A DNA stretch of 64,000 nucleotides from Gemmatimonadota bacterium (lineage in GTDB: Bacteria; Latescibacterota; UBA2968; UBA8231), in the NCBI GenBank assembly GCA_038153405.1, contig JAYOYH010000016.1, positions 33,823 to 97,822 of the forward strand, given 5' to 3'. A program made the translations under genes and the position numbers. Position 1 is the first letter of the stretch, and each line of letters begins with the position of its first letter. The notes beneath the pieces are model-generated. The model ran no database searches and was not told the origin of the DNA. It saw nothing but the letters and a program-made list of their open reading frames with translations. Positions 60,393 through 63,843 of this stretch are shown piece by piece.

Positions 60393-61640
60393 TTATTGGA
60401 CGAGCGTATACTTCTTCTTGCCTCGGCGAATGATGAGATACTTGCCGTGCAGTCCGTCCTTGGCGCCCAGCGCGCAGTCGAGATCGGTACAGCGTTCGCC
60501 GTTTACATAGATCGCCCCGTTTTGCACGTCCTGCCGCGCCTCGCGTTTAGAGGAGCAGACCTTGGCTTCGACGAGTAGGTCGATCAGCGGCAGCGATGCG
60601 GTTTCCATGCTATGCGTTGGCACGTCGTGAAAGCCCTGCAGGATTTCCTCTTCTCCCAACGCGCCAAATTCGCCGTAAAAGAGGGCGTGCGATATGCGCT
60701 GGGCCTGTTCGGCCGCTTCTTTGCTGTGCACCAGAGCGGTCACTTCATCGGCCAGTGTGCGCTGGGCTTCGCGCTTTTCCGGTGCATTCTGCACCGACTC
60801 TTCGAGCTGCCGTATAGCATCGTGTTCGAGAAAGGTAAACACCTTTAAGTAGTCAATTACCTTCTGGTCTTCGGCATTGATCCAAAACTGCCAAAATTCA
60901 TAGGGCGAGGTCTTGGCCGCGTCCAGCCACACGGCGCCGCCCTCGCTCTTGCCAAATTTGGTGCCGTCGGCCTTGGTCACTAGTGGACCGGTTAGGCCGT
61001 AGGCCTTATTGCCGTTGCTGCGTCGAATCAGGTCAATTCCAGCGGTAATATTGCCCCACTGATCGGAGCCGCCCAGCTGCAACTGGCAGCCGTATTCCTC
61101 GTTGAGCTTGAGAAAGTCGTAGGCCTGTAAGACCATATAGCTAAACTCGGTATAGGAGATACCCGACTGCAGACGCGAGTCGACCGAGTCTTTGGCCAGC
61201 ATATAGGAAATGGGAAAGTGTTTGCCGACGTCGCGCATGAAATCAATCATTTTGATGTCGCCAAGCCAGTCGTAGTTGTTGACCAGGAGGGCGGGGTTGC
61301 TGCCGTCGAAATCGAGAAAGCGCTCTAACTCGCCGCGCACGTTGTTCGACCATTCGGCCACCGTATCGGCGGTGTTGAGGCTGCGCTCTTCGCTCTTGCC
61401 CGAAGGGTCGCCAATGAGGCCGGTGCCGCCGCCGACGAGCGCGATGGCGCGATGGCCGGCGCGCTGCACGCGGCACAGCAGCATAATGGTAGCCAGGTTG
61501 CCTACCGTCATGCTATCGGCTGTTGGATCAAAGCCGCAGTAGGCGGTAATAGGCCCTTCGGCCAGCCGCTCGGCGAGCCCTTCTGGATCGGTGTTTTGAT
61601 AGATTTGACCGCGAAATTCGAGGTCTGTTAACAGGTCCAT
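60393..61640 (-). CDS. tyrS: Tyrosyl-tRNA synthetase
   Basis: YCGFDPTADS, IGDPSGK, EFSY..LQAYDF, GGSDQWGNI, KFGKS, C-terminal S4 domain RRGKKKY; start MDLLTDL after GGAAGG. Confidence 0.97.
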   Translation of the reverse strand: MDLLTDLEFRGQIYQNTDPEGLAERLAEGPITAYCGFDPTADSMTVGNLATIMLLCRVQRAGHRAIALVGGGTGLIGDPSGKSEERSLNTADTVAEWSNNVRGELERFLDFDGSNPALLVNNYDWLGDIKMIDFMRDVGKHFPISYMLAKDSVDSRLQSGISYTEFSYMVLQAYDFLKLNEEYGCQLQLGGSDQWGNITAGIDLIRRSNGNKAYGLTGPLVTKADGTKFGKSEGGAVWLDAAKTSPYEFWQFWINAEDQKVIDYLKVFTFLEHDAIRQLEESVQNAPEKREAQRTLADEVTALVHSKEAAEQAQRISHALFYGEFGALGEEEILQGFHDVPTHSMETASLPLIDLLVEAKVCSSKREARQDVQNGAIYVNGERCTDLDCALGAKDGLHGKYLIIRRGKKKYTLVQ

Positions 61641-61658
61641 GTATCCGTCCTTCCCAAT

Positions 61659-61688
61659 AAAAAAGCCCCTGATTTTTTCAGGGGCTTT
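61659..61688 (-). terminator. Attenuator terminator in the tyrS leader
   Basis: Minus strand AAAGCCCCTGA-AAAAA-TCAGGGGCTTT-TTT, 18 nt before the tyrS ATG. Confidence 0.88.
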
Positions 61689-61712
61689 CATCACTTAGCT
61701 GCACGTGCGCGC

Positions 61713-61796
61713 TCAGAGCAATGCCCCCCGATAGGTATCGCGGTAATAGCGGTAACGATAGTAGGCGAACGCAGGTGTGATCACTGGCATTTTCAT
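61713..61796 (-). CDS. Putative tyrS leader peptide (27 aa, 6 Tyr: MKMPVITPAFAYYRYRYYRDTYRGALL)
   Basis: Manual translation; Tyr cluster in codons 12-22; lies between the promoter and the terminator. Confidence 0.8.
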   Translation of the reverse strand: MKMPVITPAFAYYRYRYYRDTYRGALL

Positions 61797-61815
61797 AGTT
61801 TTTTATCCGCGCTGA

Positions 61816-61844
61816 AATATAGCGGAGCCGGTAGTGGGCGTCAA
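61816..61844 (-). promoter_or_regulatory. Sigma70-type promoter of leader-tyrS
   Basis: Minus strand TTGACG-N17-TATATT. Confidence 0.8.
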
Positions 61845-61953: not shown

Positions 61954-62030
61954 GGGCGATTAGCTCAGTTGGTCAGAGCACCTGCCTTACAAGCAGGGGG
62001 TCACTGGTTCGAGCCCAGTATCGCCCACCA
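61954..62030 (+). tRNA. tRNA-Val (anticodon TAC)
   Basis: GGGCGAT/ATCGCCC acceptor stem, TAGCTCAGTTGG D-arm, CCTGC-CTTACAA-GCAGG anticodon arm, GTTCGA T-loop, encoded CCA. Confidence 0.97.
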
Positions 62031-63209: not shown

Positions 63210-63623
63210 TCACACCCGCTTCGTTCGCAGCTTCATCTTCTTTGCTGCGCTCAGTTGGCGTTCATCGGAAGAAACAAAGAGCGCCGCATTCCACTGTAGC
63301 GCACAGGCCACGTGCAGGGCATCCATCGCCCGCACGGTGTTCGATTCCAGCACTCGGACGGCATCGGCAATCACCTCGGGGACGAGGTTAATCACCGTGG
63401 CGTCAGCCACCTCGGCCGACAAGCAGGACTTAGCCGTCCGATACTGAGTCTTCGTGAGTGCACCTTCCCGCATGTGGCGATTGAGGGCAGAGACGATCTC
63501 AGGAACACAGATAACCGATATAGCCAGTTCAGTGGCTTGGCTGCATAGATGCTCTACGGCATCGCTGCCTTCTTCCTCGACGTACCGTTTGGCGAAGGCG
63601 GACGAATCAAAGAACGTCTTCAT
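63210..63623 (-). CDS. vapC: PIN-domain VapC toxin
   Basis: FFDSSAFAKRY..E.GS, PEIVSAL, DALHVACA, SSDERQ. Confidence 0.9.
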   Translation of the reverse strand: MKTFFDSSAFAKRYVEEEGSDAVEHLCSQATELAISVICVPEIVSALNRHMREGALTKTQYRTAKSCLSAEVADATVINLVPEVIADAVRVLESNTVRAMDALHVACALQWNAALFVSSDERQLSAAKKMKLRTKRV

Positions 63624-63843
63624 CGGCGCGATCTTCTACAATGGCCGCCGACAACCCCGCCCCTTTAGACGAAAGGCGCAACGCGGGCTGTTTCCATGCC
63701 GGTTGGCTATTGGCTGCAGCTACGGGCGATACTTCGGCAATGGGCTTGCCGTGCCGCACGACCACCAGTTTTTCGCCCTGCTCGACATCCGAGAATAACT
63801 CCGATGCGTTCTTGCGGAACTCAGTGAATGTAACCGTTTTCAT
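63607..63843 (-). CDS. Phd/YefM family antitoxin
   Basis: MKTVTFTEFRKNASELF..VEQGE..VV.RHGKPIA; overlaps vapC. Confidence 0.9.
   Translation of the reverse strand: MKTVTFTEFRKNASELFSDVEQGEKLVVVRHGKPIAEVSPVAAANSQPAWKQPALRLSSKGAGLSAAIVEDRADEDVL

Follow-up and report, generated by a model that had tools for sequence, protein, structure and literature searches.

A Tyr-rich leader ORF and terminator in front of tyrS in a Latescibacterota family, a probable ribosome-dependent transcription attenuator

A 64-kb window (the whole stretch of DNA that was analysed) from a Latescibacterota genome, here called G000, carries on its minus strand a tyrosine-tRNA ligase gene, tyrS, which is preceded by a short open reading frame (ORF) rich in Tyr codons. 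This Tyr-rich ORF, a G-run at its end, a terminator and tyrS itself form a real arrangement that is conserved across the family of the genome, labelled f1 in the following. On the basis of sequence comparison and RNA folding we consider it very likely that the arrangement acts as a classical ribosome-dependent transcription attenuator, which would sense Tyr-tRNA and raise tyrS expression when charged tRNA-Tyr is scarce. The mechanism as such, leader-peptide attenuation, is textbook knowledge; its tyrosine version appears to be undescribed in the literature searched. The parts of the locus are listed below, and all coordinates are given in window numbering.

61816..61844, minus strand: sigma-70-type promoter with TTGACG (61844-61839), a 17-nt spacer and TATATT (61821-61816), matching the consensus at 10 of 12 positions
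61713..61796, minus strand: leader ORF predicted from the sequence, 27 codons and TGA, MKMPVITPAFAYYRYRYYRDTYRGALL
61743..61763, minus strand: predicted sensing codons Tyr12, 13, 15, 17 and 18, a mix of TAC and TAT with Arg interleaved
61726..61743, minus strand: small local hairpin (-7.7 kcal/mol), which masks part of the G-run and includes the Tyr22 codon
61717..61731, minus strand: segment 2, 5′ strand of the predicted antiterminator, with the G-run (61729-61724) and CATTGCT; it spans the last leader codons
61678..61695, minus strand: segment 3, 3′ strand of the predicted antiterminator, holding the C-run (61684-61681) of the terminator 5′ arm
61659..61688, minus strand: predicted intrinsic terminator, an 11-pair hairpin (61688-61662, -17.9 kcal/mol) with a T6 tract (61664-61659)
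61648..61654, minus strand: Shine-Dalgarno-like sequence of tyrS, GGAAGGA, placed downstream of the terminator stem
60393..61640, minus strand: tyrS, tyrosine-tRNA ligase of 415 amino acids with its ATG at 61640, matching TIGR00234 with 419 bits (cut-off 113.8)

Most of this layout had been proposed in an earlier note made from the letters alone, and it was recovered here: the promoter TTGACG-N17-TATATT is present at 61844-61816, the 27-codon ORF holds its six Tyr codons (12, 13, 15, 17, 18 and 22) within a span of 11 codons (61763-61731), and the GC hairpin with its U6 tract (61688-61659) stands just before the Shine-Dalgarno sequence of tyrS. The promoter match on its own is at chance level (2 found vs. 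2.3 expected); transcription is predicted to start near 61809, about 13 nt before the leader ATG. A simple terminator scanner failed to list the terminator of the tyrS leader, probably because three T of the tract were counted as stem. The GGAAGGA of tyrS lies outside the terminator stem, with at most its first base paired in the lowest-energy fold, and a 16S 3′ end with CCTCCTT is present in the genome. The amino acid of the leader matches the downstream gene (Tyr and TyrRS, TIGR00234), which was the sole TyrRS gene found by a search of the genome. A second match to PF00579 was rejected as TyrRS, as it reads as TrpRS by its sequence and its position in the trp operon. A prephenate dehydrogenase gene stands next to trpS, and the genome can therefore likely make tyrosine.

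According to the proposed mechanism, a ribosome held on Tyr12-18 would leave the G-run free to pair with the C-run of the terminator 5′ arm as it emerges from the polymerase, so that the terminator could not close in time and tyrS would be read; for this, the antiterminator would have to last until the polymerase has passed the T tract. A ribosome that has moved past codon 20 would cover the G-run, the 11-pair hairpin with T6 would form, and transcription would stop near 61659. Since TyrRS makes the charged tRNA that would be sensed, this would be a negative feedback loop. What we infer here is that the leader ORF is translated, that the polymerase pauses, that termination takes place and that tyrosine evokes a response.

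A simulation of ribosome positions by folding agrees with this scheme. The transcript was folded up to the terminator loop, and the RNA was blocked as far as 12 nt beyond the first base of the occupied codon, a distance taken from a passage of PMC4833913. With the ribosome on codons 1-20 the pairing probability of G-run and C-run is near 1 (1.00 on Tyr12-18), and from codon 21 it is 0.00. Because of this drop, the read-through zone includes Tyr12-18 and leaves out Tyr22; a stall at Tyr22 covers the G-run in the fold and would favour termination. The earlier proposal that stalling on Tyr codons frees the antiterminator thus held at the simulated positions for Tyr12-18 and failed for Tyr22. The folded antiterminator pairs 61731-61725 with 61678-61684 and 61723-61717 with 61689-61695 (total -21.5 kcal/mol), and the pairing of 61727-61717 with 61695-61681, which had been suggested before, appears in the fold of the truncated transcript. 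Its supposed mutual exclusion with the terminator applies to the seven-pair outer helix between G-run and C-run only, while the inner helix (CAUUGCU with AGUGAUG) coexists with the terminator. The protector helix first proposed for the Tyr-codon region can form; it is weak (-7.1 vs. -21.5 kcal/mol for the antiterminator) and not the preferred fold in this genome. The small hairpin at 61726..61743 is a candidate pause or protector element, judged by folding: it has CGAT/ATCG here and CGAC/GTCG in the congeners G004 and G006, which is one compensatory change, and within it the Tyr22 codon is TGT (Cys) in two congeners.

The predicted switch, in which a stall on Tyr codons frees the G-run and arrival at the stop codon blocks it, was found in 55 of 62 leaders of the family. 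An antiterminator probability of at least 0.9 was obtained for 13 of 15 genus representatives, compared to 4.3 on average and at most 7 over 40 rounds in which the RNA between ribosome and terminator was shuffled. In a set that took one locus from each of the two large genera and every locus from the other genera, the read-through zone holds 72 of 80 Tyr codons, compared to 262 of 422 other codons.

Conservation was followed through 76 genomes of the family; these and all further counts are over related genomes and do not represent independent events. A tyrS match was found in 70 genomes, and 69 loci were analysed, one locus with only the 3′ half being left out. A like terminator stands before tyrS at 64 of the 69 loci, preceded by a like promoter in 60 cases, and at one of the 64 the upstream DNA is too short, so that 63 leaders are complete, with lengths of 102-141 nt. 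Indeed, the Tyr-rich upstream ORF that the earlier note expected in relatives was found: in 62 of the 63 leaders a canonical start codon opens an ORF that includes one or more Tyr codons, with at least two in 55 leaders and at least three in 41. Counted per leader ORF, one Tyr codon occurs in 7, two in 14, three in 24 and four to six in 17. An enrichment test which treated all 20 amino acids alike (200 dinucleotide shuffles, 15 genera) gave z = 15.0 for Tyr, a value reached in 0 of 200 shuffles, followed by Gly (5.1), Arg (4.3) and Thr (4.1); the Gly enrichment is due to the G-run. This test was used because the first ATG after the promoter is an overlapping out-of-frame ATG in several leaders of genus g14. 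The leader peptides diverge apart from their Tyr, and this speaks against a sequence-specific arrest peptide. In the studied genome, 331 strict terminators (552 in all) have a gene downstream, and among these cases the tyrS leader ranks first for single-amino-acid clustering. Genome rank and family conservation together indicate that the leader is more than a chance occurrence.

Outside the family the design was not observed: 0 of 46 tyrS loci examined from the rest of the phylum (81 genomes with a match) have a Tyr ORF with a terminator, and in f2 and f4 tyrS mostly lies directly behind a coding gene. A quick tyrS tree (62 rows, midpoint-rooted, few outgroups) shows f1 as a clade (98) whose neighbours are f2, f4 and Calditrichaceae; Exiguobacterium follows after these. 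Among named homologues from outside the phylum, Exiguobacterium TyrS comes closest, with 58-61% identity. Given the limits of this tree, we make no claim that tyrS was transferred horizontally from Bacilli.

In 13 of the 62 leaders, from genera g2, g6 and g18, exactly 7 nt separate the -10 box from the start codon (L009, L013, L022, L090-L092, L099, L105, L120, L121, L123, L124, L127). This spacing suggests that these leader peptides are translated from leaderless transcripts. It is not so in the studied genome, with its predicted start about 13 nt before the ATG.

Several observations weigh against the attenuator as proposed. At equilibrium the full terminator wins at every ribosome position (probability 1.00); therefore the switch must be kinetic, beyond what equilibrium folds can model. 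The covarying stems that the earlier note had proposed to look for were not supported by a swap test of antiterminator strands in 59 of the 62 leaders (three had no G-run by the rule used): own partners gave -15.3 and swapped partners -14.6 kcal/mol, 186 of 1000 swaps were as good, and the covariation was not significant. The G:C core of the antiterminator is invariant, and it is the sequence flanking this core that shows no significant covariation. Unlike in the trp design, the naked RNA forms the antiterminator at four of four loci of this genus; a naked leader avoids it in 33 of 62 leaders overall, in 25 of 29 g14 loci and in 0 of 4 here, and in short naked transcripts the G-run is paired upstream in 54 of 59 leaders, a count without shuffle control. 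The leader ORF in this genome has a weak ribosome-binding site (GGA only, with further in-frame starts at 61790 and 61784), and three RNA runs, with small word shares, cover the tRNA and short parts of tyrS and not the leader. The excess of genus-weighted Tyr codons in frame (45.6 vs. 1.4 and 4.3 in the other frames) is inflated because the ORF of each leader was chosen by its Tyr count; the z-score is independent of this choice.

Some of the family members also deviate from the design. Seven leaders have one Tyr codon only, the congener G006 has no first leader ATG, and the leader of G022 (L015) has no ATG, GTG or TTG start. Five loci lack the terminator (g3 twice, g10, g12 and g17). Four of these nest within the f1 clade, and for this reason the absence looks like loss (the g12 gene is outside the tree); in g3 and g17 tyrS follows closely behind another gene. 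Two AT-rich metagenome loci with 83% protein identity (L213, L214) keep the promoter and the tRNA-Val gene, which in the window is the divergent upstream neighbour tRNA-Val(TAC) (61954..62030, plus strand, outside the switch), and have lost the Tyr ORF and the terminator; the leader was kept at 10 of the 12 loci with at least 72% protein identity. A further point against the attenuator comes from outside the family: the Phe-Tyr-Phe leader of aroR-aroF in Corynebacterium glutamicum is reported as unresponsive to tyrosine in a passage of PMC11802643.

Three observations on individual genomes are added here. L015 retains promoter, Tyr codons, G-run and terminator and has a short tandem repeat behind the promoter; its frame may have either a non-canonical start or be in decay. 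In L017 (G016) strong GC hairpins that lack a T tract come after a Tyr ORF and promoter, and this leader may have another output. With three queries tyrS was not found in four of seven congeners (G001, G002, G003 and G007, 84-98% complete), compared to two of 68 other f1 genomes, probably due to assembly gaps near the tRNA gene.

Among other explanations, an attenuator that reads translation speed, Arg and Tyr jointly, or the queuosine of the tRNA, and not tyrosine charging alone, fares best and is still unlikely. Arg is enriched as well, 37 of 62 leaders contain an Arg-Tyr dipeptide, five leaders from g18 have the sequence RRYRR and thus a single Tyr, and in the fold stalling anywhere from the first codon to codon 20 would give read-through. 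Nevertheless, the enrichment of Tyr is far above that of Arg, and Arg is spread over six codons. The other amino acids read by queuosine tRNAs are His, Asp and Asn, none of which is enriched (z = 1.5, 0.0 and 0.1). The aroR case is a precedent for a Tyr codon in a leader that need not give a tyrosine response; here, the controlled gene encodes TyrRS, and sister leaders in the genome, described below, match their own genes.

We regard it as highly improbable that TyrRS or another RNA-binding protein sets the terminator and that the Tyr codons are an undecoded conserved RNA motif. Synthetase autoregulation through leader RNA does exist, as in E. coli thrS (cited in a passage of PMC2965389). Tyr codons of the leaders, however, interchange between TAC and TAT (genus-weighted use in the chosen ORFs 17.8 and 27.8), vary in number from 1 to 6 and keep to one frame between start and stop within an otherwise divergent sequence, and in 13 leaders the start codon is at the predicted first base of the transcript.

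Least credible, and given next to no weight, is a diverged T-box missed by Rfam, or a leaky terminator that is not regulated and has an ORF by chance, the chance origin being excluded by the shuffle enrichment and the genome-wide ranking. A T-box binds the tRNA directly and needs no ribosome. The Rfam T-box model (RF00230) gave no hit in the window, in the genome (93% complete) or at seven f1 loci, in favour of the reading in the earlier note, while four Exiguobacterium or Bacillales and one Ruminococcus control loci scored 111-141 bits. The core motif of T-boxes occurs in 0 of 63 leaders compared to 25 of 25 Exiguobacterium controls; the studied leader has no TGG at all, and the leaders span 102-141 nt, whereas T-box matches take about 200-230 nt. 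The motif was searched since Rfam can miss diverged T-boxes, as happened for Streptococcus pheS according to a passage of PMC5314783.

The Exiguobacterium TyrS genes, closest among the named outside homologues, do carry T-boxes: one precedes tyrS at all four loci scanned, an instance of the T-box known from Bacillus-type tyrS genes. There, gene, inferred signal (uncharged tRNA-Tyr) and output (terminator read-through) would be the same as for the leader-peptide attenuator proposed here; motif and length of the T-box are absent from the studied leader.

The closest likeness is to the E. coli leaders of pheST (named pheM), trpL, pheL, hisL, thrL and leuL. Shared with these are a short ORF with clustered cognate codons, an intrinsic terminator and an antiterminator overlapping the end of the ORF, and pheST also has a synthetase for the same amino acid downstream. 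The assignment to the architecture of the trp, his and pheST attenuators made in the earlier note is thus upheld, as the testable features of this class were found by sequence and folding, apart from covariation of the antiterminator and a pause or protector hairpin. The studied case differs by its Tyr codons, by tyrS, by the weak protector helix and by apparently leaderless members in three genera. Rfam leader families gave nothing at the cut-off in the window (Thr_leader 26.1 and Phe_leader 21.1 bits, cut-off 55). The attenuation mechanism is described in passages of PMC1183508 and PMC2836559 and the pheST case in one of PMC11802643.

Leader-peptide attenuation is known from genes of Trp, Phe, His, Thr, Leu and Cys and from others. 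Leader peptides were predicted before trpS, leuS, cysS and hisS (parts of PMC1262725, PMC8632094 and PMC2965389), likewise lineage-restricted in front of a synthetase gene and found by comparison only; none of these concerns tyrosine. The hisS case is an exchange of a T-box for a leader peptide. For tyrosine genes a passage of PMC1262725 reports T-box control in other species and no structure before the tyrosine operons of Actinobacteria. A Tyr-tRNA attenuator was proposed for E. coli aroF-tyrA (a table row of PMC2659441 citing Camakaris 1980) and is called hypothesised in a part of PMC8632094. Like the studied leader, aroR-aroF and aroF-tyrA have a Tyr codon in the leader or a proposed Tyr-tRNA sensor, but they are biosynthetic operons. 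Leaderless poly-cysteine short ORFs of mycobacteria (bioRxiv 10.1101/834739) have an amino-acid-sensing ORF at the first transcript base, as predicted for 13 of the 62 relatives; they free a ribosome-binding site, whereas the studied switch would be an intrinsic terminator behind a predicted 13-nt 5′ end. In the papers covered, tyrosine and tyrS are assigned to T-boxes, and the only Tyr-codon leader tested was unresponsive to tyrosine. As surmised in the earlier note, no tyrS leader peptide was found in the literature searched, including passages of PMC3082878, PMC9413887 and PMC12310071, with incomplete coverage and without supplements.

The tyrS leader is not alone in its genome. ORFs with Gln, Thr and Trp codons and terminators precede glnS, thrS and trpE(G), and the match of codons and gene at several loci supports ribosome-read attenuation in this lineage. 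The glnS leader (contig C11 of G000, plus strand, 102928-103050, L206) contains the ORF MPIRQQQRQQKRLPIPVGG and a terminator before glnS at 103108 (TIGR00440). In front of thrS (TIGR00418) lie a terminator and an ORF of 44 codons with clustered Thr (C1, plus strand, 97200-97390, L205), and in front of the fused anthranilate synthase gene an ORF with WCW and a terminator (C38, minus strand, 17702-17570, L207). Farther down the same strand from trpE(G) lie trpS, inside the trp operon, and the prephenate dehydrogenase gene. In the fold test the thrS leader behaved as a clean switch, the glnS leader switched at the stop codon only and the trpE(G) leader gave no clear switch. The glnS design recurs in four of six other congeners and three of three g14 loci (7 of 10 further loci) and in 0 of 30 top-scoring loci, in total 7 of 40. 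A family-wide glnS leader is therefore not supported, and the element is a candidate for a patchily distributed Gln attenuator. At 16 of 19 synthetase-family loci inspected in the genome no leader was evident by eye; neither alaS nor a class I lysS was located.

Taking these comparisons together, we lean slightly towards the view that the tyrS leader is a tyrosine-specific, ribosome-read attenuator not yet in print, which would have arisen in the ancestor of the family, on a tyrS with T-box-controlled relatives in Bacilli, would since have changed between leadered and leaderless forms with the terminator switch kept, and would belong to a set of such leaders (Tyr, Gln, Thr, Trp) in a lineage that has no T-boxes. 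The 62 leaders, natural variants that carry 1 to 6 Tyr codons and are leadered or apparently leaderless, provide a ready test of a readout of Tyr-tRNA charging; they could show how few codons suffice and whether leaderless initiation couples to the terminator decision. The leader would add a case in which T-box and leader peptide solve the same problem on one gene, and it may be of use as a tyrosine reporter part. The textbook nature of the mechanism limits the surprise.

Some minor observations were made on the genome. A terminator lies just before a gene on contig C18 (plus strand, 82309) that is presumably pyrB, which it resembles by its N-terminus, and this may be a pyrimidine attenuator. 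The 42 ARAGORN calls list tRNA-Arg(GCG), without tRNA-Arg(ACG) or tRNA-His, in an incomplete assembly. A tRNA-Tyr(ATA) on contig C89 was rejected for want of an Rfam match. Within the window, two small adjoining ORFs of 78 and 137 amino acids on the minus strand (63210-63843) have, by eye only, the look of a toxin-antitoxin pair of an antitoxin and a PIN-domain protein.

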